This document shows positions 18,601 to 36,119 of a stretch of DNA of 64,000 nt, piece after piece. The notes under the pieces are model-generated. The model was given only the letters and a program-made list of their open reading frames with translations. It ran no database searches and was not told the DNA's origin. Source of the DNA: Actinomycetes bacterium (lineage in GTDB: Bacteria; Planctomycetota; Phycisphaerae; JAACET01). Position numbers and translations under genes: made by a program. The stretch spans positions 66,642 through 130,641 of the forward strand of contig JAUXAG010000006.1 of NCBI GenBank assembly GCA_030614915.1. Reading direction: 5' to 3'. The number at the start of each line of letters is the position of its first letter. Positions within the stretch are counted from its first letter, which is position 1.

Positions 18601-18602
18601 CC

Positions 18603-20101: not shown

Positions 20102-20110
20102 TTTTTCCCA

Positions 20111-20205: not shown

Positions 20206-20685
20206 ATGACAGGTAAGTCCGAAGCCCGGCTGGATATCGATCCGAGCAAATCCACCATCCTGGTGGTGGACGACAATCTGCAGAACCTCGAATTGCTCCA
20301 GGCTTATCTGGAGGATTTGGGCTGTGAGGTGATTTCCGCCGTGGACGGCGTGAAGGCTATGCAGGCCGTAGCCCAGCACAATCCGGACCTGATACTGCTG
20401 GACATTATGATGCCGAAGATGAGCGGTTTCGAGGTCTGCCGTCGGCTCAAGGAGGACGAGGCTACCTGCGATATTCCCGTAGTGATGGTAACAGCTCTGA
20501 ACGAACTGGGCGACATCGAACGGGCCGTGGCTGCCGGTACCGATGATTTTCTCTCCAAGCCCATCAACAAGCTCGAGTTGCTCACCCGGGTCAAGAGTCT
20601 GCTGCGGGTCCGCCACCTCAAGAACGAGCTGGAGCGCACCTTGGCTTATCTGCAGGAAGTTGACAGCCCTAAGAAGAAGGCTTGA
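20206..20685 (+). CDS. Stand-alone response regulator receiver domain (CheY-like)
   Basis: ILVVDDN...DLILLDIMMPKMSG...K motifs (phospho-acceptor Asp region, conserved Lys). Confidence 0.85.
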   Translation: MTGKSEARLDIDPSKSTILVVDDNLQNLELLQAYLEDLGCEVISAVDGVKAMQAVAQHNPDLILLDIMMPKMSGFEVCRRLKEDEATCDIPVVMVTALNELGDIERAVAAGTDDFLSKPINKLELLTRVKSLLRVRHLKNELERTLAYLQEVDSPKKKA

Positions 20686-20954
20686 GGCGTGAGGCACAAA
20701 AAGTGTACACTCGAATCCCCGCTTTCGCAGCCTCAAGCCTAACAAAGAGCTATGGCTGATTATACCTTGGTAATGAGAGTTCGCCTCGAAGCTTTGGACG
20801 ACGTGCAGGCCCGCGGGAAAGCCCAAGACCTTCTCGAGCAGATGGGCCAGCAGGAAATCTGCCCTGATGCCCAGTTGGTCTTGCGCCGCCAGGGACCCCA
20901 AGCCAGCCGCAATCTCTTGGGCGGAGATGGCGAATCCTAACCATTACATCTTGT

Positions 20955-21974
20955 TCAAACAAATAGCTTGGGGGCGACTTTTTTCAGAAAATGCTCAGCC
21001 AGGGCCTTGTATCCGTCGGCATTGGGGTGCAGCCCGTCGGGGACCAAATCGTCCCAGTTGGATATGTCTGGACCGAATAGTCTCAGACCGTCAATGTAGT
21101 GAATGTGCCGGTCCCCGTGAGCTTGGAGTGTATCGACAGCTGCGGCTACCTCTTGGCGCATTATCCGCAGATTTAGTTCGACCGGGTTCTTAGCTGTCTC
21201 GTATTGTGGCGCATATATGGGCGAAATGACGGCCAAGGGTGTGTTGGGATGCTTTTCCCGGACGATTTGCACAAAACCGATGATGGCTGGGCGAAAGGTG
21301 CGAAGGCTAAGACTGCACCCGCCTAGGATATTGATCCCTGCACACACGGAAAGGTAATCGACCGGTAAATCGCGGATCAAGCGGGCCAGCATGGGCTCCA
21401 AATGGCACTGACCACCAAAGCCCATGCACGTCAGATTCAACCCACGCCGGCGGGCGACAATGGCCGGCCAGGTTTGGGCCGGGCTCGCCGCGGCTGCACA
21501 TTGGGTGATGGAGCTGCCGTAAGTGATCCAGCGGGGCCGATGATCCTCGAGCGGCGCGACGGTTGCACCGTCATCGAGTTCGAGTTGCTGTAAGCGAAAT
21601 TCATGCTGTTGCGGCAGCCACAATTCGATGCTCTTCTGGCCGGTAGGTAAGTGCTCGAAGTGAAAAGTTCCCTGCTGGTCCAACTCGATGGTTTGGAGAA
21701 GTTTGCCGTCGGCGCAAAGATCTGTTCGAGCGGGGTCATCAACAGGTTCGGGAGTGGCGAGTTCGAGTTTTCCTGCTACGGTAGTGCTGTTGCTGCGAAA
21801 AGTGATACGCACTCCGGCTGCGGTGGCGCCATGGCCCCCGATGCCTTCCGGTGGAAACAGGTCGAATTGCTCGTAGGGGATACGCCAGGGCTTGACCCAC
21901 TTGTCTGTGCGCTCCAGCGAGACGACGCCCTGCCAGGTCAAACGTTCATCGTCGGGCTTGAGAATCAACGACAT
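20955..21974 (-). CDS. SGNH/GDSL-family hydrolase
   Basis: Block I YGSSITQ and block V DGLHPNADGY motifs. 339 aa. Confidence 0.7.
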   Translation of the reverse strand: MSLILKPDDERLTWQGVVSLERTDKWVKPWRIPYEQFDLFPPEGIGGHGATAAGVRITFRSNSTTVAGKLELATPEPVDDPARTDLCADGKLLQTIELDQQGTFHFEHLPTGQKSIELWLPQQHEFRLQQLELDDGATVAPLEDHRPRWITYGSSITQCAAAASPAQTWPAIVARRRGLNLTCMGFGGQCHLEPMLARLIRDLPVDYLSVCAGINILGGCSLSLRTFRPAIIGFVQIVREKHPNTPLAVISPIYAPQYETAKNPVELNLRIMRQEVAAAVDTLQAHGDRHIHYIDGLRLFGPDISNWDDLVPDGLHPNADGYKALAEHFLKKVAPKLFV

Positions 21975-22018
21975 CTGAAGGGTTCCTCTGTGGAAGTTCT
22001 TGCGAAGGTTTGATCTCG

Positions 22019-25000
22019 TTATGTGGGGACCTGTGCAAATGCACCGTGGGGAACGTTTCTGTGTCGGCCTTTTCGCTGCTGAAAGGCTCGGGCCTGGTGC
22101 ATGAAGGCCTCCAGGCGGGTTTCGGTGGTGGCCTGCTCCTGGCCGTCGTAAGCAATGCTCAGAGCCGGCATGGCCCCCAGGTCCTTCTGCACCTTCTTCA
22201 TCAGCGAGCTGACGATCGTCGAAGGCATGCAGGTAAAGGGCATTACGTTGATCACCCCGTCAGCCCCGGCATGAGCGAATTCCACCGTCTTGCCCACGCT
22301 CAGGATTGCTTCACCCTCAAAACTGTCATGTATATACGGTTCTGCCGCTTTGAGGGTTTTGCGCACGTCCTCCTCAGCCAAGGATCCCAGCAGCCGTTCG
22401 AACGGTCGGGCGTAATTCTTCTCAATCCGGTGCTGGATATGATTCTTGAGGCGGTTGGATAGATAATCGCTTATATCTCGCTCGCGCATGGCTGTGCGCG
22501 AACGCGTGAAATTCGTATAGTACATCCACTCGGCAAAGCCGCACAGCGTAACTTGGGCCCCCAGGGCCTCGAGCTGCCGCACGATGTTCTGGTTGCTGAA
22601 GGGATGAGAGCGGACGAAGATCTCTCCCACTACGCCGATCCAGGGCTTGGGCTGGAAACGGTCCACACCAATCCTCTCGAACTGCCCGGCGCAGAAATCC
22701 ATTACTTTCTGCAGGTCGTCGCCGTTTTCGATGGCCATACACACCCGCTGCAGACACATCTCATATACCTCGTCCACCCTGCCGGTTCTGAGTTCATAGG
22801 GCCGCAAAGCCAACTGGGCCTTGTTGAGCAAATCGACCGCAGAGATGCCCTGCCAGGCAAGTTTGGTCGGATCCTGCTTGAACTGCTTGAAATCCTCGTA
22901 GAAATCCTTGTCCTGGTTGGGGGCGATGACCGGCACATCCGGATAACCCACGTCAGCCAGGATAAGCTTGTGCAGCCTGTTGTACTGCCCAAATCGGCAA
23001 GGACCGCAGCCGCTGGGCATGAAGAAGGCCGCCCGTTCAGGATCGAAATCTTTGTCAAAGACCACTCGCAGCATATCGCCGGCCGTTACCGTGCAGGGCA
23101 AACATTCCTTGCCCGTAGTGTACCGCCTACCCAGGGCCAACGATTCGGCATCGGTCATCGGCAGCACCTCGGCCGGTTGACCGCAACGGTGAAAGGCCGC
23201 CACCAGCACCTGGGCATGGTCGCCCATCGGCGGGACGTACACCGTCCGCCGGCTGTGATCCGGCTTCTCTTTGCTTTCACGCAGGATAGTCGTCTTGCTC
23301 TGGCCCGGATGCAAACGTTCGATATTCCGCAGGCTTTCCAGATAGGCCTCCAGGCGGGTTACCACCCCGGCATCGGCTGAATGCTCGTCGATCTCCAAAG
23401 TCAGGAAGGGCTTGTTGCCCATCGCATGTTTGAAAAAGGTATTCAGGAATGAGTCAGGCCCGCAGCCAAAGTTAGTCAGATAGATGGCATAAAGTCTAGG
23501 GTCCTGGCGGATAACTTCCGCCCCGGCCAGGATACGCTGTCCGTATTTCCAGTACATCGACTGCCATTCGTCCGCCAATTTGCCCCGCAGCTCCAGCATA
23601 TCCAGGGGGATAGCCAACACGCCCATCTTTTTCAGCTTGGCCGGTACATTCAGCGATACGCTCGCATCGCAGCCGTTATACGGCCGGGATACCAGCACCA
23701 CCGTTCGTTGCTCGGCCCTGAGATTCGCAAGCGCCTCTTGGGCGCGCCTTCGACAAGCATCTTCGAAATTCCGCTGGGCCCGTTCGGCGTCGTCAATCGC
23801 TCGGCTGAGCTGCTTTCGGCTCACATCCAGTTGGCGACAGAGCACCGACAAATCCTTTTCCATCAACCGTCGGCCATCCTGAAAACGCACCGGCGTGTCC
23901 AGCAGTTTTACCCCGCGTTCTTCCGGCGTCAGGGCGACCTTCACCTGGTAAGGAATTGTCTGCACGTAGGGGCACAAAACGTTGCGGCTCTGCCGCTTGT
24001 CCTCGGCGGGCATACTAACCACGCTGGGCAGCCAGAGGTAATCCACCTTCTTCTCGATGAGCTTATCGATGTGCCCGTGAGCCACCTTTACCGGGAAGCA
24101 GGGCTGGCTCAGAACGCCTTCCACGCCGCGCCTGATTATCTGCTTGGTCGATGCCCCCGAGATGACCACCGTAAAGCCCAGGCTTCGGAACATCCTCCCC
24201 CAGAACGGCAGTAACTGGTAGTTGCTCAGGGCCAGGGGAATACCCACTGTCCCTTTGCTGTGCTCTTCCTGCTCGGCGATACCGGCGAACTTTTCCAGCA
24301 GTTTTTGACGTTCGCCGAACAAATCGGGCAAGTCGTCGCCCAAGCCTTTTTCCTTTTTAACATTGTAGCGGTCGCAACGGCTGCCGTAGTAGAGCGCTTC
24401 GCTGCCTTCGATGCTAACCTTTTTGATTTCACAGTTATTGGCACAATGTTCGCACTCGAATGATTCGATTCTGTAGGAGCGTTCGCTGATCTCGAACCCC
24501 CGAAAGTTGCTCTGCTTTATCTGGGGATTCTCCGCCCTATATTTCTTGGCCAACAGGGCCACGCCGATAGCACCGGTAACCTCGTGGTGCTCGGGCACCG
24601 TAACTTCACTACCGATTACGGCGTTGAAGGCTGCCACAACTCCTTTATTAAAGGCCGTACCCCCTTGGAAGAATATCCGCCTGCCGATCCGCCTGGGGCC
24701 CACCACCCGATTGAGGTAGTTGTGTACGATGGAGTAGCTCAGCCCCGCTACCAGGTCCCCGATAGGCACGTTCTGCTGCTGGTAGCGGATCATGTTTGAT
24801 TCCATAAACACCGTGCAGCGCTCGCCGAGCTTTACCGGTGAGTCGCTGGCCAAGGCCAGGTCCCCGAATTCTTCTTTGATGGCTACGTCCAGCCGCTCAG
24901 CCTGTTCTTCCAGGAACGAGCCGGTCCCCGCTGCACAGGCATGGTTCATCTCGAAGTCCACCACCACGCCGTTGTCCAGGCTGATGTATTTGGAATCCTG

Positions 25001-26302
25001 GCCGCCGATTTCGAAAATGGTATCAACCTCCCGATCGATAGCTGCCGCAGCCGTGGCCTGGGAGGTTATCTCGTTGACCACCAGATCAGCCCCCACGAAA
25101 TCTCCGGTCAGATAGCGTCCCGAGCCGGTCGTTGCTATGCCTTTGACTACCACCTGATCCTTCAGGGCTTGGACAATCTCTCGCAAACCCTGCCGGACAG
25201 CCTCGATTGGTTTGCCGGCGGTCATCAGGTACGATTTGGCCAGGAGCCGCCCATCTTCGTCGATGGCCGCCAGGCAAGTAGAGATCGAGCCGACGTCTAC
25301 CCCCAGGTATACGCTGACGTTTTTCTCCTCAGGCTGGAGTTTTCGCATTACCCGTTGCGGCCCGCCGTCGTCAGAAGGTTCAATAAGCTTGCTCAGTCGC
25401 TCGCCGGTCATCCCCCGATTGCTAAGGTGTTGGTTGAGCTTGTCAGCCCGGAATTCACCGGGCCATTCGCCCGAGTTCTCCAGGGCCGTCAGCACCGCCC
25501 CAATGGCCCCTGTGCTGCTGTGGCATGGAGGAACTATCAGTTCGCCCGATTCCATCTCCAGCACGTTCTCGAATGCCCGCACCACCCCCTCGTTCGAGGC
25601 CACACCCCCGCAGAAGGCGATCGGGCGAATGAACTCTTTGCCTCGGCCGACGTTGCTCTTGAAGTTTCTGGCCAGTCCTAGGCACAGCCCGGCCACAATG
25701 TCGTAGTCCGGAGTCGCTTGCTGTTGCAGATGGATCATATCGCTCTTGGCGAACACGCTGCACCTGCCGGCAACTCTCGGAGGATTCTCGCTCTGCAGAG
25801 CTAGAGCCTCAAATTCACCTTCAATTTTTAATCCCAGTCGGCTGGCCTGTTGATCCAGGAAGCTGCCCGTGCCTGCCGCACAGACCGTATTGGTAGCGAA
25901 ATCCTCGATTAGTTCCGCCCCTCCCCCTGCAGACAGGAAGACCAGCTTTGATTCTTCGCCGCCCATCTCGATCAGGGTTCGCACTTGAGGCTCGACCTGG
26001 CGTATGCCCCGGGCCTGGGCGATGATCTCATTTACAAACGGAACCCCCAGCAGCTCGGCTACCAGTCGTGCTCCGGTCCCGGTACCCGCCAAGAGAGCCA
26101 CTCGGCCGGCATCGGTTCTGCCAAAAAACTCTCCCAGGACCTCCAGAGCCGTCTGCACCGGACGAGCGTGTATCCGGGTGTAAGATTCTTCTAGAAGCGC
26201 GCCGTCTGCGTTGAGCACCGCCACGTTCAGACTTATTGAGCCGATATCGAAGCCAACATAAAGCTTTGCCGAATCCCTGCTCGCCTCTGGATCGCTTATC
26301 AT
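22019..26302 (-). CDS. CoA-substrate-specific enzyme activase fusion: two BadF/BadG/BcrA/BcrD (HgdC-like) ATPase domains plus 2-hydroxyacyl-CoA dehydratase HgdB/D-like domains
   Basis: Two repeats of the acetate/sugar-kinase-like ATPase core (VGFDIGSISLNVAV..., LGVDVGSISTCLA...; CAAGTGSFLD twice) followed by a ~900-aa dehydratase-component-like region. 1427 aa. Confidence 0.75.
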   Translation of the reverse strand: MISDPEASRDSAKLYVGFDIGSISLNVAVLNADGALLEESYTRIHARPVQTALEVLGEFFGRTDAGRVALLAGTGTGARLVAELLGVPFVNEIIAQARGIRQVEPQVRTLIEMGGEESKLVFLSAGGGAELIEDFATNTVCAAGTGSFLDQQASRLGLKIEGEFEALALQSENPPRVAGRCSVFAKSDMIHLQQQATPDYDIVAGLCLGLARNFKSNVGRGKEFIRPIAFCGGVASNEGVVRAFENVLEMESGELIVPPCHSSTGAIGAVLTALENSGEWPGEFRADKLNQHLSNRGMTGERLSKLIEPSDDGGPQRVMRKLQPEEKNVSVYLGVDVGSISTCLAAIDEDGRLLAKSYLMTAGKPIEAVRQGLREIVQALKDQVVVKGIATTGSGRYLTGDFVGADLVVNEITSQATAAAAIDREVDTIFEIGGQDSKYISLDNGVVVDFEMNHACAAGTGSFLEEQAERLDVAIKEEFGDLALASDSPVKLGERCTVFMESNMIRYQQQNVPIGDLVAGLSYSIVHNYLNRVVGPRRIGRRIFFQGGTAFNKGVVAAFNAVIGSEVTVPEHHEVTGAIGVALLAKKYRAENPQIKQSNFRGFEISERSYRIESFECEHCANNCEIKKVSIEGSEALYYGSRCDRYNVKKEKGLGDDLPDLFGERQKLLEKFAGIAEQEEHSKGTVGIPLALSNYQLLPFWGRMFRSLGFTVVISGASTKQIIRRGVEGVLSQPCFPVKVAHGHIDKLIEKKVDYLWLPSVVSMPAEDKRQSRNVLCPYVQTIPYQVKVALTPEERGVKLLDTPVRFQDGRRLMEKDLSVLCRQLDVSRKQLSRAIDDAERAQRNFEDACRRRAQEALANLRAEQRTVVLVSRPYNGCDASVSLNVPAKLKKMGVLAIPLDMLELRGKLADEWQSMYWKYGQRILAGAEVIRQDPRLYAIYLTNFGCGPDSFLNTFFKHAMGNKPFLTLEIDEHSADAGVVTRLEAYLESLRNIERLHPGQSKTTILRESKEKPDHSRRTVYVPPMGDHAQVLVAAFHRCGQPAEVLPMTDAESLALGRRYTTGKECLPCTVTAGDMLRVVFDKDFDPERAAFFMPSGCGPCRFGQYNRLHKLILADVGYPDVPVIAPNQDKDFYEDFKQFKQDPTKLAWQGISAVDLLNKAQLALRPYELRTGRVDEVYEMCLQRVCMAIENGDDLQKVMDFCAGQFERIGVDRFQPKPWIGVVGEIFVRSHPFSNQNIVRQLEALGAQVTLCGFAEWMYYTNFTRSRTAMRERDISDYLSNRLKNHIQHRIEKNYARPFERLLGSLAEEDVRKTLKAAEPYIHDSFEGEAILSVGKTVEFAHAGADGVINVMPFTCMPSTIVSSLMKKVQKDLGAMPALSIAYDGQEQATTETRLEAFMHQARAFQQRKGRHRNVPHGAFAQVPT

Positions 26303-26560
26303 AACCCCGCTTTCTTAGTTTGCGTACCTTCTCGGAAACTGGCCCAATATTTGTCGCCTATCCCTGCTTAAGCTGATATCCGCATTGTAAAACGGCATTA
26401 TACCCTCTTGCAGGCCTCGGGGCAATAGCGCCAATGCTATTTGAGGCTAGCTAGTGTCCAACCGACCGTTCCAGCACAGCTTTCCGGCAGTTACTCTATC
26501 TTCGGACCCAGCCATATGCCGTGCCTTGACCCACCCACCGGAAAATTATTGTTTTTGACA

Positions 26561-26712
26561 GCAAAAAACCTCGCAGGTTACTATCTCTATTGCCGATAAT
26601 GTCTTAGCCCATATTCTTAGCTGGGGCTCTGCGAAGTATTCAAGCACACGACCTTCGGAAATAGTAAAATACTCACCCTGGAGCCCCAGCTCAAGGCCAA
26701 TTGCTAAGATGG
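26561..26712. repeat. ~150-bp intergenic leader repeat, copy 1 (copy 2 at 29066-29213)
   Basis: About 90% identical to 29066-29213 by eye. Copy 1 has an 11-bp perfect inverted repeat (agctggggctc…gagccccagct) and a TTGACA-N18-TACTAT promoter-like site at 26555-26584. Confidence 0.7.
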
Positions 26713-26776
26713 CGTTCATTTGAATTTATAAAGCGGGGTTTTTTCCGCTTGCCAAACAGAAACAAAGTTAGAAACG

Positions 26777-29017
26777 ATGTCCCAAGGCGCTTGCGACATG
26801 GTCACGTCACATAATGGTCAGCCTTTTCTCGGTCCGCTTATGCGGCGGCGGTCTGATGCCTTCATTGCAATTGGCATCTTCGCTGTAGCCGTGCTGGTGC
26901 GCGGCGTGTACCTGGCCGAAAGCTCGGACAATCCGACGTTTGGCTACCCAATAGTCGATTCTTCGACCTATCACGAGATGGCTGCCGAGCTGGCGCGGAA
27001 CGGCCAGATGGACTCGGGATACTTCTGGCAGCCTTTTTTCTACCCGTTTTTTCTCTCTGTGGTGTATAGACTCGCTGGGCCTTCGGTCCTGGCCGCAAAA
27101 CTGGTCCAGGCGCTGCTGGGAGGTGCGACATGCACGCTGAGCTATCTTTTGGGCCGGCGAGTGTTCTCGCGGGCGGTAGGTATCGCGGCAGGGTTGATCA
27201 TGGCCTTCTATGGGCCGCTGATCTTCTTCGAAACGGAGTTGCTCGCGGCGGGCTGGGCTGCCTTCTGGGCGGTAACCCTGTGCCTGTTGCTGCTAGGTGC
27301 GGCCAGTCAGCCCACAATTAAGCGCTGCCTGTTGTTGGGGCTTTGCACTGTGCTAGCGATCATCACGCGGCCGACGTTCTTACCTTTTTGTGCGGCTGCG
27401 TTGATATGGCTCGCTTGGCGATGGGCTCGGCAGGTTCAGTTTAGGCGCTGGGCGTTATTCACGGCTGCGTTTGCGACAGGCTTTGGGATCGTAGCCATCC
27501 CGCTTGGTGTGTGCTTCAGGCGCACCACCGGGAGATTAACGATCTTGCCGTATTCCGCTGGTCTCAATATGTATATCGGCAACAACCCCAACAGCCGCCA
27601 GACACTGACCATCCGGCCAGGCTGGGAATGGCGGCAGCTCCTCGAGCAGCCCATGCGGGAAGGCCTTGAGGGTCCCTGGGACAAACAAGCCTATTTCATG
27701 CGCCAAGTCCGCCAGTACCTTATGAGCGATCCGGCCGGATTCGCAGCGGGCATAGGGCGAAAGACGCTACAATTCGTCAGCTCGCGGGAGATTCCCCGTA
27801 ACATTGATCCCTACCTGTTCGCTCGCTGGTCGCTGGTATTGTCGGTGCTGAATCCAAAGGCGGCGGGCTTCGGGTTTGCCTTTGGCTTGATTTTGCCGCT
27901 GGCATTACTTGGCCTGATGGCTCGCTGGCGGGAGGTCCCCGGCCCGGTCTGGCTGTTACTGTTGGCCTATCCGGCAGCGGTGATCACGGTATTCGTCGCA
28001 GGCAGGTATCGCGTGCCGATTGTCCCGGTGGCGGCAGTGATGGCAGCAGCCGGAGGAGGCTTTATCATCCAAGCCGCCAGCCGCAGGCAGTGGGGTCTGC
28101 TGGGGCTCTCGGCTGTCTCGGTGGCCGGCACAGTCGTTCTGAGTTCGCTGCCCGGACCGTTTTGGGAGGAGCAAGCCAACTACGAGGCCGAGATGTATTG
28201 CGGGCTGGGCTATCACTACGCCCATGCGGACAACTATGACCGGGCCATCCGCGATCTCAACCAGGCCATCAAGTTGAGTCCCAAGTATACCGAGGCCTAT
28301 AACAATCGGGGACTCACCTACTCGAGCAAAGGCGAGTATGACTTGGCCATCCGTGATTTGGACAAGACCATCGAGCTGAATCCGAGCTATGCCGAGGCCT
28401 ACAGCAACCGGGGCGTTACGTACTTGGCTAAGGGTGACTACGATCGGGCCATACGGGATTTCGACCAGGCCATCGCGTTGAATCCCGCGTATGCCCACGC
28501 CTACAACAACCGCGGTATCGCCTACGGGAGCAAAGGCGAATATGACCGGGCCATCCGCGATCTCAACAAGGCCATCGAGTTGAATCCCAGGCTTGCCGAC
28601 GCCTACAACAACCGGGGTATGGCCTACGGGAGGAAAGGCGAATATGACCAAGCCATCCGCGATCTCAACGAGGCCATCGAACTGAATCCCGGAAATGCCG
28701 AGGCCTATAACAATCGGGGGATGGCCTACGGGAGCAAAGGCGAAGATGACCAAGCCATCTGCGATTTCAACGAGGCCATTGAGTTGAACCCGAGCTATAC
28801 CGGGGCCTATCACAATCGGGGACTCGCCTACGGGAGCAAAGGCAAATATGATCTAGCCGTCCGCAACTTCGAAAAAGCCGTCCAATTGGCCCAGGCCGCC
28901 GGAAACGAAAAATTGGCAAAGTATATCCAGAGCCGGCTGGAGTTGTACAAGGCCAGGCGGCCCCATCGCGAACTGTTTACTCCTCAAGATCGTACCAGCC
29001 CGGAACCGAAAGAGTAG
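26777..29017 (+). CDS. Polytopic GT-C glycosyltransferase (GT39/ArnT-PMT-like) fused to C-terminal TPR repeats
   Basis: About 450-aa N-terminal multi-TM domain, then 9 or more 34-aa TPR units with consensus AYNNRG.AY..KGEYD.AIRD...AI.LNP. Confidence 0.7.
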   Translation: MSQGACDMVTSHNGQPFLGPLMRRRSDAFIAIGIFAVAVLVRGVYLAESSDNPTFGYPIVDSSTYHEMAAELARNGQMDSGYFWQPFFYPFFLSVVYRLAGPSVLAAKLVQALLGGATCTLSYLLGRRVFSRAVGIAAGLIMAFYGPLIFFETELLAAGWAAFWAVTLCLLLLGAASQPTIKRCLLLGLCTVLAIITRPTFLPFCAAALIWLAWRWARQVQFRRWALFTAAFATGFGIVAIPLGVCFRRTTGRLTILPYSAGLNMYIGNNPNSRQTLTIRPGWEWRQLLEQPMREGLEGPWDKQAYFMRQVRQYLMSDPAGFAAGIGRKTLQFVSSREIPRNIDPYLFARWSLVLSVLNPKAAGFGFAFGLILPLALLGLMARWREVPGPVWLLLLAYPAAVITVFVAGRYRVPIVPVAAVMAAAGGGFIIQAASRRQWGLLGLSAVSVAGTVVLSSLPGPFWEEQANYEAEMYCGLGYHYAHADNYDRAIRDLNQAIKLSPKYTEAYNNRGLTYSSKGEYDLAIRDLDKTIELNPSYAEAYSNRGVTYLAKGDYDRAIRDFDQAIALNPAYAHAYNNRGIAYGSKGEYDRAIRDLNKAIELNPRLADAYNNRGMAYGRKGEYDQAIRDLNEAIELNPGNAEAYNNRGMAYGSKGEDDQAICDFNEAIELNPSYTGAYHNRGLAYGSKGKYDLAVRNFEKAVQLAQAAGNEKLAKYIQSRLELYKARRPHRELFTPQDRTSPEPKE

Positions 29018-29065
29018 TAGGCCTCCGATGAAGAGCCATTCGTTGATACCCGTCACGACCAGACG

Positions 29066-29213
29066 GCAAAAAACCTTGCAGGTTACTATCTCCATTGCCG
29101 ATAAGGTGTTAGCCCATATTCTTAGCTAGGGCTCTGCGAAGTATCCAAGCACACGACCTTTGGAAATAGTAAAATACTCACCCTGGAGCCCCGCCTCAAA
29201 GCCAATTACCAAT
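29066..29213. repeat. Intergenic leader repeat, copy 2
   Basis: See copy 1. Here the stem is degraded by non-compensatory changes. Confidence 0.7.
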
Positions 29214-29241
29214 ACACGAGCTGTTGGTTTAGAGCTGCAAA

Positions 29242-31311
29242 TTGTCACTTTCGTCGGCTTGGCGGGCGGGAAGTGAACAAATGTCGTCCAAAAGCAAAAA
29301 GTTTTCATTAGACGAACGTACAGATCAGCCAAAGGCTCGCCTGGCAGAAAGCTCATTTTCAGATTGGCGGGGTTTTGTGGCTGGGGGCCTGATCGTCGCA
29401 GCTGGCTTGCTGGCCTATTGCAACAGTTTCGGCGGGCCTTTCATCTTCGATGGTAAAGGCTCCATTGTTGAAAACTCTCACATCCGCCGGCTTTGGCCTA
29501 TCTGGCAGGTCTTCCGGGCCGAGCCTGGCTCGACCGTGGCTGGCCGACCTATCTTGAGTTTATCTTTCGCCCTGAACTACCAAATCAGTGGCCTGAAGGT
29601 CTGGAGCTATCACGCAGTCAACCTGGCTGTGCATATCCTGTCAGCCTTGACGCTCTTTGGCATCCTGCGCAGGACGTTACTCTCCGAAAGGCTGCGGGGT
29701 CGTTTCGGGCAGGCGTCATTTAGCCTGGCATTAATCTGCGCATTAATCTGGCTGGCACACCCTCTGCAGACAGGCTCGGTAACCTACATCGTCCAGCGGG
29801 CCGAGTCGCTAATGGGTCTATTTTATTTGTTGAGCCTGTATTGTGCCATCCGCGGGTTTTCTTCAGCCAAGAGCCGACGATGGTACACCCCTGCCATTCT
29901 GGCCTGCGCCTTGGGGATGGGCACTAAGGAAGTAATGGCTACTGTCCCGTTTATGGTGTTGCTTTACGATCGAGTTTTCGTATCTCGGTCGTTCAAAGAA
30001 GTATTTACCCGGCGTTGGGGTTTGTATGCCGGTTTGGCGGCTACGTGGGTAATCTTTGGCGGATTAGCTTTTTTCGCTCCGCGGGGCAAGTCAGTGGGCT
30101 TCGGTTCTCCGGGCCTGACAGGGCTCGAATACGCTATGACTCAATGCAAGGTCATTGTTAACTATTATCTAAAGCTTTCCTTTTGGCCGCATCCTCTGCT
30201 GTTGGACTACGGCTGACCGATAGTCAGAAGTTTTGGCCATGTTGTGCCCTACGCCTTGGTGCTTGTGGTGCTGTTGATCGTAACGGTGATAGCCCTTCGC
30301 TATCGCTCAGGTTGGGGTTTTCTGGGGCTTTGGTTCTTTCTGATCCTGGCGCCTAGTTCTAGCTTCCTGCCCATTATCAGCGAAATAGTTGCCGAGCATC
30401 GCATGTACCTTCCTTTGGCGGCGGTTGTTGTTGCGGTGGTTGTTTGTGGCTATTGCCTTGGAGGACATCTGTTCTCTCGGCTGGTAAGTTCTGATGACCG
30501 GCGGCTAGCCCTGGAGCGACTCTTGGGATACGCCTTGGCTGGAGTTGTTGTTTTTGCTCTGGGTTTCGCGACAGCCAAACGGAATCACGACTACCGTAGC
30601 GAGCTTTCAATCTGGCAAGACACCGTCGTCAAACAGCTTGACAATCCGCGTGCCTACAACAACCGAGGACAAGCATACAAGAGCAGGGGCCAGCACGAGC
30701 TGGCCACCCGCGATTACAACAAGGCCATCGAGTTGGATCCCGCATATGCCAAGGCCTACAACAACCGGGGTAACGCCTACGGGAGCAAAGGCGAATATGA
30801 CCAAGCCATCCGCGATCTCAACAAAGCCATCAAGTTGGATCCCAAGAATGCCCACGCCTACTACAGCAACCGGGGCGTTGTCTACCGAGACAAGGGTGAC
30901 CTTGAGCAGGCTATCCGTGATTTCGACCAGGCCATCGCGTTGGATCCCGCATATGCCACGGCCTATAACAACCTAGCGTGGATACTAGCCACGTGTCCAG
31001 ATCCCCAGATTCGCGACGGAGCTGAGGCGGTTCACCTTGCAGAACGAGCCTGCGGACTGGGGGACAATAGAGTTCCGACACAGCTGGACACCCTGGCGGC
31101 CGCCTATGCTGAGCTAGGCCAATTCGACCAGGCCGTCGAAACTGCCGAAAAGGCTGTCCGGTTAGCCTTGGCTGCGGGGCAGCAAGAATTGGCCAAGGAT
31201 ATCCGGAACCGGCTAGAATTGTACAAGGCCAAGCGACCGTTTCGAACCTCTGCACGCCAGCAGGTTCAGCCTGACCGCCTCTCTCCACCAAACTCAAAAG
31301 ACGAACCATAA
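29242..31311 (+). pseudogene. TMTC-like (O-mannosyltransferase-like membrane domain + TPR) gene interrupted by a single in-frame TGA at 30214-30216
   Basis: ORFs 29242-30216 and 30244-31311 share one frame and are separated only by TGA. I checked the readthrough (...LLLDYG*PIVRSFGHVVPYALVLVV...) by hand. N-terminus has the TMTC-like LLAYCNSFGGPFIFDGK motif, and TM helices continue across the stop. C-terminal TPR tail resembles the neighbouring genes. Confidence 0.55.
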
Positions 31312-31449
31312 AGGAACGTAAAAGATACAACCGAACAAAGAACCCAAACCAGGAGCCGAAATTGTCATGTAATCTCTAATCCATACTTGTCCCAATTTAG
31401 CTGAACCGATACACTATATACTCCTTTCATCCCAAGATGGAGACGAGAA

Positions 31450-34400
31450 ATGGTCAAACAGCAAATTATATTAAAAAACTCGACCAACAAAATAGCACTG
31501 CTGATTCTAATGTGCTTTTTCCTCTCCGGCCTGACCGGCCTAGTATACGAAATACTATGGACAAGGCTCATTATTAAGATCATCGGCGGTGCACCATTTG
31601 CCGTCAGCATCGTTCTAACCGTTTTTATGGGTGGCCTGGGTTTGGGCGCTTATCTGGCCAGTCGGATCATAGACCGTATCACCGAACAAATGAAGCTGGT
31701 AAGAATATACGGCGCATTACAACTGGCAATAGCTGCTTATGCCCTGGTGATTCCGGTGCTGCTGACGGCTTCCAAGCCGCTTTACGCAATTCTTTATAAT
31801 CGGCTTTTCAGTCATTTTATGCTTTATAACCTTCTTACCTTTGTCGGCTGCTTCATCCTGTTGTGCATCCCTGTTATTTGTATGGGAGCCACGCTGCCGG
31901 TTTTGTGCCGGTTTTACGTTACCAAACTCTCTCATCTAGGTACACATGCCGGGAGGTTATACGGATTAAATACTATCGGTGCTGCTTTAGGTGCTCTGTT
32001 GTGCGGTTTTTGGCTAATCAACCTACTGGGCGTATGGGGAACGCTAATTCTTGCAGTGCTTATTAACGGCGTTATCGGGCTGGCCTGTATCGCTGCCAGC
32101 TATAGAGTGAAGGTGGCTGACGAACTAACAAAGGCGCCACAAGAAAGCGATGTTAAACGAATCCAACAGCCGAAATACCAGGGAGTTTTGTTCGGAGCAT
32201 TGATAATCTTTGCGGTGTCGGGTTTTTGCGCTATGTCCTATGAGGTAATATGGACCAAGCTGCTGGGATTGATGCTCGGGCCTACAACCTATTCTTTCAC
32301 TATTGTACTAGTCACTTTCATTGTAGGATTGGCCTTGGGTAGTATGTTTTTCGGCTGGCTTGCGGACAAAACCGGCAGGGCTATGTGGCTTTTAATATTG
32401 ACCCAGATTATGGCAAGCTTATTTGTACTGGGGATAAGTCAACTTCTGGGAAACAGCCAATTGTTCTTTGCTAAGCTGATCTTTGTCTTTAAAGACCAGT
32501 TCGCCCTGTTAAGCGTCGTTAAAACGGTTGCTTTGTTTGCCTTTATGATTTTGCCGACATTTTGTCTTGGTGCGACCTTCCCTTTGGTCAGCAAGATATA
32601 CACTCAATCTGTTTCGAGAGTGGGAAGATCCATTGGCCTTGCATATACCATCAATACGATTGGTGCGGTTTTAGGCTCATTTTGTGCTGGTTTTCTAATT
32701 ATACCGCTTTTTGGCAAAGAGACGGGATTAAGTCTTGTTATTGGCTTACAGCTTCTTACCTCACTGGTTATCGCTGTTGTCATTTTTGCTAAAAACAGAA
32801 AAGGCCTATTAAAGTGGACATCCCTGGCGGTGCCGGCCCTGGCTGGATTAGTTCTTTGCTTTTATCTTCCGGTGTGGAACCGTCCTCTGCTTGCCCAAGG
32901 CAAATATCATCGCTTCGACCCAAATAAAAGAGGCGTAGAAAGAGTCGGCTGGCTGGAATCCCTTTTGCACGGCCCGGAAATACTGACCAAGTTAGATTTC
33001 AGCGAACTGTTATATTATGGTGATGGTATTGGCGGTTTTACCACGGTACGGAGGAGTCAAGACGCGTTTGGCAATTTTGCATATTTCATGGCAAACAGCG
33101 GAAAAGGGGATGCTTCAACACGAGGAGATATGTGTACTCAAACACTGTTAGCACATTTGCCCATGCTCTTTCACCGGAATCCAAAAACGGTTATGGTATT
33201 GGGACTGGCAAGTGGAATAACCGCCGGCGAGGTATTGCATTATCCTATCGAGCAGCTCGATGTCATCGACATCAACCGTCAGGTTGTTGCGGCAAGTGAC
33301 TTCTTTGTGCCGTGGAATAATAACGTCCTTTCCAATCCCAAAACGAATCTTATTATTCAGGATGGACGGGCGCATCTTCAGCTGACCAGACAAAAATATG
33401 ATGTGATTATTTCCGAGCCTTCTAATCCATGGATGGCCGGCCTGGCTACTCTGTTTACACGCGATTTCTTTGCCCTTGCTGAAGACAGGCTCAACGAGGG
33501 TGGCATATTTGTTCAGTGGCTCCACGCTTACCAGATGGATTGGCCCACTTTTGCCCTTGTCGGCCGGACTTTTGCACAGGTCTTTCCAAACAGCCTTTTA
33601 GTCTCGACCCGCCCCCATGGACTTGATTTCCTCATGGTCGGATTTAAAGGCAAAAACCAGTTGATTCTGGACAATGCAGAGCAAAGGCTCTTCTACACTC
33701 AGCAGTCAAAAAATGTGGTTCTCTCCGACCCAAGATTGCTATACAGGCTCATTCAATCTGAAGATCTTCAAAATCTCTTCGGCCAAGGTCCTGTTAATAC
33801 AGACAATTGGCCTCGGCTTGAATTCAGTGCACCGAGACTGATGCACCAAATGGATTCGATGGTAGAAGAAAATATCGGGGCTAAACAATGGCTCAGTCTC
33901 AGAACGAAAAATATAATCGATCAGGTCGTAACAGACGTCGATGCCCAGATTGATTTTGCTGCTTATGCTCTTTCGCTTTATATTCCATTTCATGACATGG
34001 TTGACCTTTCAAAAGCCACGCCATCACAGAAAGAGCGTTTTTTTGGGCTTATGGAGTCGTATTGTGCCAATAACTGGGTGGAATCTGGCGTGATCAAAAA
34101 CGAAGAACTACATCGCAGGTGCCGCTCGATTCAAATAGAAACCATAGACGATAAGATTGCTGTTGTACCCAATAAGGCATCTTCGTACTTTCGCCTGGCC
34201 ACTAGCTACCAAGAAATGGGAATGGTGCAAAAAGGCATATCCAATTGGTCAAAGTTACTGCAAATCAGACCTAACCAAGCCGACGCCTACAACAACCGGG
34301 GTATCGCCTACTCGAGCAAAGGCGAGTATGACTTGGCCATACAGGATTTCGACCAGGCCATCGCGTTGAATCCCAAGGACGCCAAGACCTATAACAATCG

Positions 34401-34803
34401 GGGACTCACCTACTCGAGCAAAGGCGAGTATGACTTGGCCATACGGGATTTCGACCAGGCCATCGCGTTGCATCCCGCATATGTCACGGCCTATAACAAT
34501 CGGGGTATCGCCTACGGGAACAAAGGCGAAGATGACCAAGCCATCCGCGATTTCAACAAGACCATTGAGTTGGACCCGAGCTATACCGGGGCCTATTGCA
34601 ATCGGGGACTCGCCTACGCGAGCAAAGGCGAATATGACCAAGCCATCCGCGACTTCGAAAAAGCCGTCCAATTGGCCCAGGCCGCCGGAAACGAAAAATT
34701 GGCAAAGTATATCCAGAGCCAGCTGGAGTTGTATAAGGCCAGACGGCCCCATCGCGAACTGTTTACTCCTCAAGATCGTACCAGCCCGCAACCGAAAGAA
34801 TAG
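31450..34803 (+). CDS. Fused MFS-like membrane domain / spermidine synthase-like domain protein with C-terminal TPR repeats
   Basis: N-terminal 12 or more TM helices. Central spermidine-synthase fold motifs (VMVLGLASGITAGEV...IDINRQV...YDVIISEPSNPWMAG). C-terminal TPR units, with the last ~70 aa nearly identical to gene 26777-29017. Confidence 0.75.
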   Translation: MVKQQIILKNSTNKIALLILMCFFLSGLTGLVYEILWTRLIIKIIGGAPFAVSIVLTVFMGGLGLGAYLASRIIDRITEQMKLVRIYGALQLAIAAYALVIPVLLTASKPLYAILYNRLFSHFMLYNLLTFVGCFILLCIPVICMGATLPVLCRFYVTKLSHLGTHAGRLYGLNTIGAALGALLCGFWLINLLGVWGTLILAVLINGVIGLACIAASYRVKVADELTKAPQESDVKRIQQPKYQGVLFGALIIFAVSGFCAMSYEVIWTKLLGLMLGPTTYSFTIVLVTFIVGLALGSMFFGWLADKTGRAMWLLILTQIMASLFVLGISQLLGNSQLFFAKLIFVFKDQFALLSVVKTVALFAFMILPTFCLGATFPLVSKIYTQSVSRVGRSIGLAYTINTIGAVLGSFCAGFLIIPLFGKETGLSLVIGLQLLTSLVIAVVIFAKNRKGLLKWTSLAVPALAGLVLCFYLPVWNRPLLAQGKYHRFDPNKRGVERVGWLESLLHGPEILTKLDFSELLYYGDGIGGFTTVRRSQDAFGNFAYFMANSGKGDASTRGDMCTQTLLAHLPMLFHRNPKTVMVLGLASGITAGEVLHYPIEQLDVIDINRQVVAASDFFVPWNNNVLSNPKTNLIIQDGRAHLQLTRQKYDVIISEPSNPWMAGLATLFTRDFFALAEDRLNEGGIFVQWLHAYQMDWPTFALVGRTFAQVFPNSLLVSTRPHGLDFLMVGFKGKNQLILDNAEQRLFYTQQSKNVVLSDPRLLYRLIQSEDLQNLFGQGPVNTDNWPRLEFSAPRLMHQMDSMVEENIGAKQWLSLRTKNIIDQVVTDVDAQIDFAAYALSLYIPFHDMVDLSKATPSQKERFFGLMESYCANNWVESGVIKNEELHRRCRSIQIETIDDKIAVVPNKASSYFRLATSYQEMGMVQKGISNWSKLLQIRPNQADAYNNRGIAYSSKGEYDLAIQDFDQAIALNPKDAKTYNNRGLTYSSKGEYDLAIRDFDQAIALHPAYVTAYNNRGIAYGNKGEDDQAIRDFNKTIELDPSYTGAYCNRGLAYASKGEYDQAIRDFEKAVQLAQAAGNEKLAKYIQSQLELYKARRPHRELFTPQDRTSPQPKE

Positions 34804-34860
34804 TAGGCCTCCGATGAAAAGCCGTTCGTTGATACCCGTCACGACCAGACGGTAAAAAGT
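34250..34860. repeat. Near-identical TPR-tail DNA repeat (partner roughly 28250-29080)
   Basis: Last ~200 bp of the two TPR genes plus ~55 bp beyond the stop (taggcctccgatgaa.agcc.ttcgttgatacccgtcacgaccagacgg) are more than 95% identical. Similarity fades upstream. Confidence 0.75.
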
Positions 34861-34991
34861 CCGCGGAGTTCGCGTGAATCTTCGATCCCAATCGGTTATA
34901 ATCCTTTAACTTGTCTTTTTCATGAAGTGATGACGCCCTTGTCCGATAAAATCCTTACTGAACCGCTCCCAGGCCAATAGGAAAGCAGTCG

Positions 34992-36119
34992 ATGAGTTAT
35001 TACCTTGCTCGACGAATCGTCTTGGTTCTTGTTTGTTCGTTGCCCCTCTTGCTGGCTTTTGGCTGCAGTCTGGAGCAAGGCCAATGGACCAGTTCCCGGG
35101 CCTCTCATGTTCCGGTCCTGCCTGAAGAAGCCGAGCCCTGGACTTTTGGAGCAATGGAAGGCCGGATCATCGAAACTCCTCATTATCGTATCTATACCAC
35201 CGTCCAGGACGCACTGCTGCTGGAAAAGCTGCCCATTCTCCTGGAAACCGCTTATGAGCAGTACTTGGCTTTCCTGCCCCAGGCCCAGGCCGATGAAGAG
35301 CCCCTGGTGATATATCTGTTTGGCCGCCGTTCGGAGTGGGAGACCTACACCCGCCAGAACATGGGTGCCTTGGCCGAAAGCTATTTGAAGATTCGAGCCG
35401 GAGGATATTCCCACAACGGCATCAGCGTAGCTTATCTGTTGGATCGCTACCACACCTTTGGCGTCTTGGCCCACGAAGGCTTCCATCAGTTTGCCAGCAG
35501 TCGCCTGGCTCACAGAATCCCTGCTTGGATGGAAGAGGGTTTGGCCTGCAATTTCGAGGCCCATTTTTGGAGGGCTGGAAAACCTGACTTTGCCCCAGAC
35601 CTCAATGAATTCCGCATCAAGGCCCTTCAGCAGGCCTTACGACGCGATTCGCTTTTCCCCCTCTCGGAAATCTTGGCTATGGATGCCGGCCAGGCGGTCG
35701 CCATGCCCGCCGAGAAAACCGCTACCTTTTACGCTCAGTCCTGGGCCCTGACCCGATTCTTGCAGGAGGGCCGGAGAGGCAAATATCGGCCGGCTTTTCG
35801 CCGAATGCTCAACGATGCCGCCGACGGCGCCAATCTCTACAGCCAGGCCCAGGCCGTCGAGATCTTCGAAAGTTACTTCCAGGAGGACCTCGAGACTATT
35901 GCCGATGATTTTGTCTTCTTCGCTCGTTTTCTGGCTGATCGGAAGATCGGGCCGGGCATGGAAGTCTATTTGGTCGGATCCGGCCAGACCAGAACGACCG
36001 CAAGGATCACCGCTGAGCAGATCGAGCAGACCAAAGCGGACCGCGTCGGCACGCCGGCTGAGCCCGATGCACTGATCATCAGAATCGAAGAACAGTCGCA
36101 AAGCGACAAGCCGAACTAA
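34992..36119 (+). CDS. Lipoprotein with HExxH motif (DUF1570-like putative metallopeptidase)
   Basis: Lipobox LLLAFGC. HEGFHQF zinc-binding-like motif. DUF1570 name is from memory of Planctomycete proteins. Confidence 0.5.
   Translation: MSYYLARRIVLVLVCSLPLLLAFGCSLEQGQWTSSRASHVPVLPEEAEPWTFGAMEGRIIETPHYRIYTTVQDALLLEKLPILLETAYEQYLAFLPQAQADEEPLVIYLFGRRSEWETYTRQNMGALAESYLKIRAGGYSHNGISVAYLLDRYHTFGVLAHEGFHQFASSRLAHRIPAWMEEGLACNFEAHFWRAGKPDFAPDLNEFRIKALQQALRRDSLFPLSEILAMDAGQAVAMPAEKTATFYAQSWALTRFLQEGRRGKYRPAFRRMLNDAADGANLYSQAQAVEIFESYFQEDLETIADDFVFFARFLADRKIGPGMEVYLVGSGQTRTTARITAEQIEQTKADRVGTPAEPDALIIRIEEQSQSDKPN

Follow-up and report, generated by a model that had tools for sequence, protein, structure and literature searches.

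Three membrane enzymes with one kind of tail

The window, a 64,000-nucleotide stretch of a metagenome contig from a Pirellulales-like planctomycete, carries a chromosomal tandem array of three inner-membrane enzymes with unrelated catalytic heads and the same kind of C-terminal tail (Table 1). In the ORF list, genes 1, 2, and 3 are consecutive and all lie on the plus strand. BLASTP found no significant similarity between the three heads, and one family of 102-nt TPR units and a capping helix are common to all three genes. The sequences agree in this with the first-pass annotation, which had described three successive genes with unrelated N-terminal membrane domains, the same TPR family, and the same terminal helix.

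Table 1. Coordinates of the genes and repeats in the window
Feature	Position	Strand	Remarks
Leader copy 1	26557-26707	+	Spacer upstream of gene 1
Gene 1	26777-29017	+	746 aa; GT-C glycosyltransferase, PMT_2 (ArnT/PMT-like) family, with 7 TPR
Gene 1 head	26777-28186	+	
Gene 1, seven 102-nt TPR units	28187-28900	+	
Gene 1 capping helix and C-terminal extension	28901-29014	+	
Conversion tract, gene 1 copy (probable donor type)	28697-29072	+	TPR units 6-7, cap, extension, 55 bp of 3' flank (29018-29072)
Leader copy 2	29062-29212	+	Gene 1-gene 2 spacer; hairpin degraded
Gene 2	29281-31311	+	TMTC-like polytopic protein (putative); interrupted by in-frame TGA
Gene 2 in-frame TGA	30214-30216	+	Two codons past LLLDYG, in the loop preceding the next transmembrane helix
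Gene 2, three TPR units	30646-30951	+	
Gene 2 full-length cap module	30952-31308	+	
Gene 3	31450-34803	+	1117 aa; fused MFS/spermidine-synthase-fold protein; Pfam MFS_1, Spermine_synth, TPR
Gene 3 TPR units, one degenerate and four regular	34177-34686	+	
Gene 3 capping helix and extension	34687-34800	+	
Conversion tract, gene 3 copy (probable acceptor)	34483-34858	+	Last two TPR units, cap, extension, 55 bp of 3' flank (34804-34858)

Gene 1 scored 31.3 bits against Pfam PMT_2 (cut-off, 26.1), in keeping with its earlier description as GT39/PMT-like, and it matched TPR families too. A 739-aa protein from NCBI (P0121), with its start at 26798, is 100% identical to the gene 1 product. The AlphaFold2 model of this product has a pLDDT of 88.5, and the TPR part is similar to consensus CTPR and to the OGT/SPY TPR superhelices.

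Gene 3 had been read as MFS plus spermidine-synthase-like, and its MFS_1 and Spermine_synth matches bear this out. Its product consists of 12 MFS helices (6+6), a 13th transmembrane helix ahead of the soluble domains, a class-I methyltransferase/SpdS fold, a helical linker, the TPR units, and the cap (AlphaFold2 pLDDT, 83.6). With 120 bits against a cut-off of 40, it is well inside the NCBIfam family NF037959, "fused MFS/spermidine synthase," for which we found no described function in the literature. It matches PDB spermidine synthases at E = 1e-18 and fails the spermidine-synthase equivalog cut-offs. Over 1,100 homologs were found at E <= 1e-100, many of them TPR tailed. The motif SEPSNPW is invariant across the homolog alignment; placing it by eye, we take it to stand where the canonical acidic catalytic box belongs.

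Gene 2 consists of two ORFs in one frame (29242-30216 and 30244-31311), and its start is likely ATG 29281 rather than TTG 29242. The TGA between the two parts was overlooked in the earlier reading of the sequence. In L017, the closest relative, the ortholog is 53% identical and has Ile in place of the TGA. There is no recoding-type hairpin downstream of this codon (fold z = +0.5). The earlier label of the head, TMTC-like, holds as a putative one by architecture and one motif, but it has no passing Pfam score. The first ORF (29242-30213) reached 19.9 bits against PMT_2, below the cut-off, and the joined head, translated from ATG 29281, matched neither PMT_2 nor DUF1736. A comparison with the gene 1 family by hhalign gave a probability of 36%. 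The motif HP(L/I)(Q/H)T..V of gene 2 and its orthologs resembles AVHPIHT of human TMTC3. Eukaryotic TMTC1-4 are O-mannosyltransferases with the TPR domain on the non-cytoplasmic side, and prokaryotic homologues have been noted (PMC7801869). As in TMTC1-4, a polytopic, apparently GT-C-type membrane domain is followed in gene 2 by a C-terminal TPR domain; unlike in TMTC1-4, the Pfam matches are missing and there is a premature stop codon.

A leader duplicated before genes 1 and 2

The spacers in front of genes 1 and 2 hold two copies of a leader, 92.5% identical over 146 bp (26557-26702 versus 29062-29207; E = 1.5e-55). The first-pass annotation had reported this duplication, with coordinates that were off by about 4 bp. 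Copy 1 opens with a sigma-70-like TTGACA-18-TACTAT site at 26555-26584 (10/12 matches), and about 107 nt of it (26601-26708) fold into a two-tier hairpin (-43.1 kcal/mol; z = -3.6). The 11-bp inverted repeat noted before is perfect in this copy (AGCTGGGGCTC, 26619-26629; GAGCCCCAGCT, 26681-26691), but in copy 2 it has two uncompensated mismatches, and the fold there has a z of +0.37. The leader has no match in Rfam and is absent from L017. In the gene 1-gene 2 spacer, the leader repeat overlaps by 11 bp (29062-29072, GACGGCAAAAA) with a repeat of the gene 1 tail. This overlap had been overlooked, as had the best partners that the TPR units of gene 2 find in gene 1.

The end of gene 3 matches gene 1 better than its own ortholog

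Tails 1 and 3 share one ungapped register with an offset of 5786 (28493-29072 versus 34279-34858) and are 87.8% identical across 580 bp. The identity rises in steps: it is about 75 to 82% in 28493-28700, which is the background between TPR units, about 90% in 28700-28860, and 96.1% in 28866-29072, where 8 mismatches in 207 bp separate the segment from 34652-34858. The match runs 55 bp beyond the stop codon, with 52 of the 55 positions identical, and ends abruptly at 29072/34858. The identity of more than 95% over about 200 bp and some 55 bp past the stop, claimed from the first reading, is thus confirmed, and self-alignment places it above the TPR background. Over the whole tract, the gene 1 and gene 3 copies are 90 to 98% identical. 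The mismatches are clustered (permutation test, P = 5e-5). dS between genes 1 and 3 is 0.077 in the tract and 0.476 in the adjacent TPR units, and third-codon positions in the tract are 94 to 97% identical. The two TPR units of the tract have 16 non-synonymous and 2 synonymous differences (omega, about 2.3), an excess that is not significant (whole-tract omega, 0.99; Fisher P = 1.0). TPR units of the array, including those of gene 2, find their best DNA partners in other genes; g2_2 of gene 2 and g1_4 of gene 1, for example, are 88% identical.

Comparison with orthologs shows gene 3 to be incongruent along its length. Up to about 34330, gene 3 is 80 to 88% (about 86%) identical in nucleotides to its ortholog in the related contig L022. 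From about 34480 to 34858 it is 90 to 98% like gene 1 and only 57 to 82% like L022; beyond 34741 it has no homology to L022, and the match with gene 1 continues past the end of the L022 ortholog. Over their last 53 aa, the products of genes 1 and 3 are 87% identical to each other and 57 to 62% identical to their own orthologs, to which the two genes overall are 64 to 78% identical.

Other planctomycete assemblies show tail-copying events of independent origin. The gene 1 ortholog of L017 has a gene-2-type tail that matches the gene 2 ortholog at 100% across 350 bp or more; behind it, out of frame, lies a fossil of the former gene 1 end, LELYKAKRPHRELF...PEPK*. In L002, a sulfatase-TPR gene and a TMTC-like-TPR gene have 647 bp in common at 97.7%. 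L018, a relative with six TPR-tailed genes, has no high-identity DNA repeats, and copying therefore comes in episodes and is not constant. Five differently headed L018 genes all end in ...DFEKA.QLA.A.G...YKANRP, the capping module has 314 matches with E <= 0.001, and tails of this architecture are already present in the closest orthologs of genes 1 and 3. The tail family is old, and arrays in related genomes carry it on many different heads.

Gene conversion and its alternatives

We put the probability at about 0.8 that the end of gene 3 was recently overwritten, via gene conversion, by a tail segment of the gene 1 type. Because the 102-nt tail units, 70 to 88% identical in DNA, supply long homology between otherwise unrelated genes, homologous recombination probably copies tail segments to a neighbor gene time and again, presumably by a RecA-type mechanism and either as non-reciprocal gene conversion or as an unequal exchange with an equivalent result. 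The latest event at this locus probably overwrote the gene 3 end with about 376 bp of gene-1-type tail, and a separate or linked event duplicated the 146-bp promoter-proximal leader before genes 1 and 2. A direction from the gene 1 type to gene 3 is suggested by the C-terminal extension, since it is present in L017 gene 1/X-type tails and missing from the L022 ortholog of gene 3. The direction depends on these two relatives, and it would be the opposite if the L022 lineage had lost the extension.

A reading in which the likeness of the tails comes from constraint on the protein or from convergence, with no exchange of DNA, is refuted by the identity at synonymous sites and across 55 bp of non-coding DNA. 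The capping module is indeed strongly conserved in many proteins, but orthologous tails under the same constraint reach only 57 to 62% protein identity. We also consider it very improbable that the pattern is an assembly artefact, in which reads of one tail built the other or two pieces were joined at a shared k-mer. The longest exact match between tails 1 and 3, 69 bp, would suffice for a shared node at small k, and two related contigs, L017 and L022, are broken off within or close to the repeats. Yet 8 differences are scattered over 207 bp on either side of the 69-mer, the flanks differ, and no exact match between the leader copies is longer than 31 bases. Independent assemblies of other samples show the same pattern, and NCBI proteins identical to those of genes 1 and 3 lie on one 145,964-bp contig.

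The most serious rival, although an unlikely one, is a segmental (tandem) duplication or Campbell-type insertion. The locus would then be two units with the same flanks, [leader-gene 1 head-tail-55 bp] and [leader-gene 2-gene 3 head-tail-55 bp], joined in the gene 1-gene 2 spacer at the 11-bp microhomology GAC[A/G]G[C/T]AAAAA, and the cargo seen today would stem from subsequent deletions and divergence. The leader repeat begins at 29062, before the tail repeat has ended at 29072, and all three copies contain the 11-mer; two independent conversions fail to explain this overlap, which may instead mark the point where a duplication was joined. In L017, just the fossil end and 14 bp separate genes 1 and 2, with neither leader nor 55-bp element, and the spacer of the window is therefore a recent construct. 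However, the adjacency of genes 1 and 2 is older than the event, as L017 shows, the present order requires at least two further precise deletions, and the stepped tail identity and unit-by-unit mosaic are left unexplained. Duplication is compatible with conversion, and both may have acted together. Less probable still is a selected cassette system, in which conserved flanks, the leader on the 5' side and the tail with its 55 bp on the 3' side, exist to drive recombination that re-assorts heads and TPR tails, envelope modification being diversified and TPR surface residues coming under diversifying selection after each exchange. The common flanks around different cargo, the recurrence of tail exchange between different head types in several genomes, and the non-synonymous excess in the tract would fit such a system. 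But that excess is not significant, the closest relative has no leader, and copy 2 of the leader is losing its structure. Neither the ORFs beside genes 1 to 3 nor the 13 Pfam-scanned neighbors included a recombinase, invertase, or reverse transcriptase, and ordinary homologous recombination between repeats is enough to account for all the observations.

Gene conversion thus remains our preferred reading, and it agrees with the first-pass proposal that recent DNA-level recombination homogenized the gene 1/gene 3 tail and the gene 1/gene 2 leader: synonymous sites, non-coding DNA, the closeness of paralogs relative to orthologs, and equivalent events in other genomes all point to it. The accompanying picture of diverging heads was mistaken, as the heads are unrelated families sharing an old tail family. 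The idea of tail swapping survives in part: copying was recent, but it covered a partial tract and no whole tail cassette.

Relation to known systems

Partial gene conversion of bacterial paralogs that share only their ends is known from the outer-membrane protein genes babA, babB, and sabA of Helicobacter pylori. There, as here, a terminal segment is copied non-reciprocally between neighboring or dispersed genes, and paralogs beat orthologs in identity within a discrete tract only. Unlike in H. pylori, the heads of the partners are unrelated enzyme families rather than diverged paralogs, and what they share is a TPR domain of tandem repeats, which allows register shifts and unit mosaics. We know of no tie between the tail exchange described here and antigenic or phase variation. 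Among eukaryotes, Podospora NWD genes are one case of concerted evolution of repeat domains across paralogs. Further cases are fungal NLR genes with TPR, WD40, or ANK repeats (PMC13449251) and the mammalian TPR genes IFIT1/IFIT1B (PMC4887208). The likeness lies in very similar repeat units exchanged within and between genes and in signs that, once exchanged, repeat residues may come under relaxed or positive selection; the difference is that those are eukaryotic immune or recognition genes, whereas ours are bacterial envelope enzymes in which the positive-selection signal is not significant. For prokaryotes, one study documents recurrent concerted evolution of 26 genes (PMC6053082). These are whole homologous genes, whereas here just the shared domain of otherwise non-homologous genes is homogenized.

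The tail is a near-consensus TPR superhelix whose end is closed by a conserved capping helix. GT-C enzymes have their C-terminal domains in the periplasm or lumen, and MFS proteins have their termini in the cytoplasm. Going by what is known of these families, the tails are most likely periplasmic and may serve as a common docking or substrate-binding module. Their copying at this locus is a clear yet fairly ordinary gene conversion, a new instance of a known process.

Gene conversion at the 3' ends of genes 1 and 3

Genes 1, 2, and 3 are consecutive membrane-enzyme genes with different heads and related TPR tails. The first-pass annotation had proposed a self-comparison of the region; we compared the whole window with itself and recovered the repeat at the ends of genes 1 and 3 and the leader repeat upstream of genes 1 and 2, each without further copies. 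The two tails form one ungapped alignment of 580 bp (offset, 5786), with 87.8% identity. Over the first 200 bp, identity is ~75 to 82%, the level seen between TPR units within one gene, and it is ~90% over 28700-28860. It reaches 96.1% over 28866-29072 (8 mismatches in 207 bp), above the TPR background and in line with the earlier claim of more than 95% over ~200 bp. The match was also said to run ~55 bp past the stop codon; indeed, it ends abruptly 55 bp after the stop, and 52 of these 55 noncoding bases are identical. The 71 mismatches are clustered, since their permutation over the 580 sites gave a P value of 5e-5 for the low-mismatch window, and a run of 69 identical bp had a permutation P value of 0.005. 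Where the tract is coding (28697-29014), dS is 0.077, versus 0.476 in the two TPR units directly upstream, and in the last two TPR units the third codon positions agree at 94% and 97%. Given the low dS and the identity at noncoding and third positions, constraint at the protein level cannot yield this pattern.

We then compared the genes with their orthologs. The closest ortholog of gene 3, on a JGI metagenome contig (L022), has 86.3% DNA identity with window 32290-34741. Gene 3 matches it at 80 to 88% up to ~34330 and at 57 to 82% thereafter, with no homology after 34741, whereas identity of gene 3 to the paralog, gene 1, rises from ~30% to 90 to 98% over ~34480-34858. The terminal 53 residues of genes 1 and 3 are 87% identical to each other, versus 57 to 62% for each against its own orthologs, and the whole ortholog proteins are 64 to 78% identical to the products of genes 1 and 3. 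As read from these alignments, the ortholog-to-paralog switch is what gene conversion typically leaves behind. The locus combines paralog identity above ortholog identity, a discrete and clustered tract, and synonymous and noncoding identity. The probable direction of copying is suggested by a C-terminal extension, '...RPHRELFTPQDRTSPEPKE' ('...RELF..PEPK'), which is present in the gene 1/X-type tails of an ENA metagenome contig (L017), including a fossil end, and absent from the L022 ortholog of gene 3, which ends '...LALYKAKHPYR'. Judged from these two relatives, the donor was probably of gene 1 type, and gene 3 the acceptor whose end was replaced.

The 102-nt TPR units also have best DNA partners across genes. 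By gene and unit number, these pairs are g1_2/g3_3 (85%), g1_3/g2_3 (80%), g1_4/g2_2 (88%), g1_6/g3_4 (90%), and g1_7/g3_5 (92%). This mosaic points to several older exchanges, which would have involved all three genes. Within the tract, the two TPR units (28697-28900 versus 34483-34686) differ by 16 nonsynonymous and 2 synonymous changes. We rejected positive selection on these units, as their omega of ~2.3 is not significant and that of the whole tract is 0.99. The omega of 0.17 for the capping helix indicates constraint, on numbers too small for significance.

Coordinates of features in the window
Feature	Position	Strand	Description
Leader, copy 1	26557-26702		Upstream of gene 1
Leader, copy 2	29062-29207		Upstream of gene 2
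Sigma-70-like site	26555-26584		TTGACA-18-TACTAT
11-mer, start of leader copy 1	26557-26567		
11-mer, end of gene 1 tail repeat and start of leader copy 2	29062-29072		
11-mer, end of gene 3 tail repeat	34848-34858		
Gene 1	26777-29017	+	746 aa; PMT_2 head, polytopic N-terminal half, then seven TPR units (Pfam)
Gene 2, first ORF	29242-30213	+	Likely start ATG 29281
Gene 2, first half	29281-30213	+	
Gene 2, in-frame TGA	30214-30216	+	
Gene 2, second half	30217-31308	+	
Gene 3	31450-34803	+	1117 aa; MFS_1 and Spermine_synth (Pfam)
Gene 3, 'SEPSNPW'	33412-33432	+	S655-E656-P657-S658-N659-P660-W661
Conversion tract, gene 1 copy	28697-29072		~376 bp
Conversion tract, gene 3 copy	34483-34858		~376 bp
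Tandem paralogs	460-4849		463, 483, and 481 aa
ATPase gene	42821-44914	-	697 aa

Tail exchange in related genomes

The same process can be followed in other genomes. On L017, the head of the gene 1 ortholog has 86% DNA identity with that in the window, and this ortholog bears a long cap module of the kind characteristic of gene 2 ('...LAWILATCP...LDTLAAAYAELGQFDQAV...'). The tail of the downstream gene 2 ortholog matches this module at 100% over at least 350 bp, and the end of an upstream gene does so over 106 bp. Past its new end, the gene 1 ortholog is followed directly by an out-of-frame 'LELYKAKRPHRELFDPETISIPEPK*' (L017 2584-2661) that aligns with the end of gene 1 in the window. By this alignment, the remnant is a fossil of the 3' end displaced by the gene-2-type tail. 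Tail pairing differs by lineage, gene 1 with gene 2 in one and gene 1 with gene 3 in another.

In a metagenome-assembled Pirellulales genome (L002), 647 bp of tail (10710-11356 and 13431-14077) are common to a sulfatase-TPR gene and a TMTC-like-TPR gene at 97.7%, with ~480 bp identical. A further relative, L018, has six TPR-tailed genes at 8022-22032: one PMT_2, two sulfatase-fold, and three with other heads. Five consecutive plus-strand genes of L018, with different heads, end in '...DFEKA.QLA.A.G...L..YKANRP' (or '...YKAKYP') without high DNA identity, which argues that the tail family is old and shared and that homogenization is episodic. When we used 97 residues of the cap as a query, 314 proteins matched at E <= 0.001, and their names in the source include spermidine synthase, O-mannosyltransferase, and Ser/Thr kinase.

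The duplicated leader and its junction with the tail repeat

The first-pass annotation had also described a duplicated leader, and the two copies are in fact 92.5% identical (E = 1.5e-55). Copy 1 starts at the region's best sigma-70-like site, and its fold is a long hairpin with two tiers (-43 kcal/mol; z = -3.6); in copy 2, this fold is lost through uncompensated substitutions (z = +0.37). A known cis-regulatory RNA or riboswitch was rejected, since an Rfam search of 26200-35100 at E <= 1 gave no match and the copy 2 substitutions break the stem without compensation. We also rejected a mobile element (MITE or IS), as there is no inverted repeat at the leader ends and there are only two copies in 64 kb. 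The flanks upstream of the two copies are not similar, and the 70 nt between leader and start codons have marginal homology only (z = 1.9; P ~0.05). On L017, the leader is absent at both positions, where the spacers consist of 36 bp and of the fossil plus 14 bp. In a search of JGI metagenomes with two exact leader k-mers, the first was absent and the second hit one unrelated contig of 42% GC, a chance match. From these comparisons, we read the leader as a lineage-specific duplicated promoter/5'-UTR segment, possibly without function.

The tail repeat of gene 1 and the second leader overlap by an 11-mer, GAC[A/G]G[C/T]AAAAA, a point missed in the first pass. The 11-mer stands at the starts of both leaders and at the ends of both tail repeats, and the spacer between genes 1 and 2 therefore looks like a junction of two repeat families. 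With this overlap, one can write the locus as two units flanked alike, leader-gene 1 head-tail-55 bp followed by leader-gene 2-gene 3 head-tail-55 bp. Such a layout could reflect a microhomology-mediated duplication junction instead of two independent conversions. The recombination proposed in the first-pass annotation is right for both the tails and the leader. We regard the locus as a new, well-documented instance of partial gene conversion, with concerted evolution of a repeat domain, which is a known process.

Three unrelated heads in an ordinary chromosomal setting

BLASTP between the three heads found no significant similarity. Gene 1 can be classed as a GT-C glycosyltransferase of Pfam PMT_2, since its polytopic domain has a passing match (PF13231; 31.3 bits versus a cut-off of 26.1; residues 85-231). 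A confident AlphaFold2 model (pLDDT 88.5) has ~11-12 membrane helices. In GT-C enzymes, the catalytic base is an acidic residue conserved in the first extracytoplasmic loop; a candidate for it in gene 1 is D61, which lies in the loop that follows TM1 ('PIVDSSTYH') and does not vary among 39 homologs. A PDB sequence search with the head found no match, and Foldseek hits of the model were to TPR proteins, which left the head unclassified in this search. In the model, the tail looks like the superhelices of designed consensus TPRs (36-40% identity) and like the TPR domains of OGT/SPY.

Gene 2 has TPR units and a sub-threshold PMT_2 match, 19.9 bits for the first ORF versus a cut-off of 26.1. Two of its features had escaped the first-pass annotation, the likely start, judged from the ortholog, and an in-frame TGA between two halves that share a frame. 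Both halves stay open and conserved, and the TGA could mean that the gene recently became a pseudogene, that the sequence is in error here, or that the gene is split. Selenocysteine or other recoding is unlikely, since there is no downstream hairpin (z = +0.5) and the L017 ortholog has Ile at this position. The joined head has no PMT_2 or DUF1736 match at E <= 10, hhalign against the gene 1 family gives a probability of 36% (E = 3.7e-4), and a PDB search with a 4-sequence profile found no match. By domains, gene 2 does not qualify as a TMTC-type O-mannosyltransferase, for it has neither a DUF1736 match nor a passing GT-C/PMT_2 match. By architecture and motif it resembles one, with ~10 hydrophobic segments followed by TPR units and an 'HPIHT'-type motif ('AHPLQTGSV'; 'VHPIHTDAV' in the L017 ortholog). 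Human TMTC3 carries 'AVHPIHT' (PMC7801869).

Gene 3 belongs to NCBIfam NF037959, 'fused MFS/spermidine synthase' (120.2 bits; cut-off, 40). It scores 100 bits against TIGR00417, for which the cut-off is 249.55, and falls far under the cut-offs of the PRK models. PDB spermidine synthases are related in fold to its domain (E = 1e-18). The motif 'SEPSNPW' is invariant in 41 homologs; by eye, we place it where aminopropyltransferases have the canonical acidic catalytic box, and we likewise take 'GLASGITAGE' to stand at their glycine-rich box. Gene 3 thus fails the equivalog cut-offs and has this invariant motif at the presumed site of the canonical one; judged by sequence, its domain is probably not a canonical spermidine synthase or aminopropyltransferase. 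The model (pLDDT 83.6) has 6+6 MFS helices split by a disordered basic loop; a 13th membrane helix comes next and leads to the spermidine-synthase fold, which a helical linker connects to the TPR tail. Our literature search on the function of fused MFS/spermidine synthases found nothing specific.

Gene-3-type genes also occur on contig L005, where two 97.7%-identical copies of a 227-aa gene (7799-8496 and 9092-9790) lie directly upstream of them; we read the end of the product by eye as a PEP-CTERM-type sorting signal. Adjacent gene-3-type genes on this contig are 94.6% identical over their first 224 bp (10001-10224 and 13051-13274), and the second holds an N run.

The genes flanking the array are ordinary chromosomal ones (SecA, an Rnf subunit, rplM/rpsI, argC/argJ, and MutS). 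Proteins identical to those of genes 1 and 3 were found on one 145,964-bp contig in a protein collection with NCBI as its source, and the closest relatives are metagenome-assembled genomes of Pirellulales and of other Planctomycetota. Synteny of the three-gene array is not conserved in 16 GTDB genomes, which have only variable arrays of similar genes, and a literature search for such a locus type found nothing specific. Elsewhere in the window are three tandem paralogs, two with weak DUF4139 matches, that share DNA repeats of ~67-77% identity. An ATPase gene adjoining mutS has strong PADLOC matches to AriA, Old, and GajA-type proteins and is a candidate anti-phage defense gene.

Discussion

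MFS termini are cytoplasmic, and the basic residues of gene 3 follow this pattern; together with the 13th helix, this puts its soluble domains in the periplasm, as a prediction. The C-terminal domains of GT-C enzymes are on the periplasmic side. Those of TMTC proteins lie on the noncytoplasmic side (PMC7801869). A TPR tail that is common to different heads acting on the envelope, and predicted to be periplasmic, may serve them all in docking or in target binding. One may go further and imagine a selected modular system, in which planctomycete arrays of periplasmic envelope enzymes (GT-C, sulfatase-fold, and MFS-SpdS-fold) have a common TPR docking tail, recurrent exchange of tails and leaders re-assorts heads, tails, and promoters, and diversifying selection on residues of the TPR surface tunes the choice of envelope targets for modification. 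We consider this very improbable; if it were true, the shared flanks would be no accident of recombination. The proteins are members of widespread, uncharacterized families, and the copying of tails alone reveals neither a new mechanism nor a new function.

Trees built from full-length proteins of TPR-tailed GT-C, sulfatase, and fused MFS/spermidine-synthase families will be misled by such exchange, and annotation is affected. In metagenome assembly, contigs break, and may mis-join, at TPR tails. The array is a clean, well-bounded bacterial case of domain-restricted concerted evolution, in which genes with unrelated catalytic parts stay partly identical because they have a common repeat-built domain. 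Near-consensus TPR arrays are recombination substrates, and enzyme tails are thus replaceable between close relatives.
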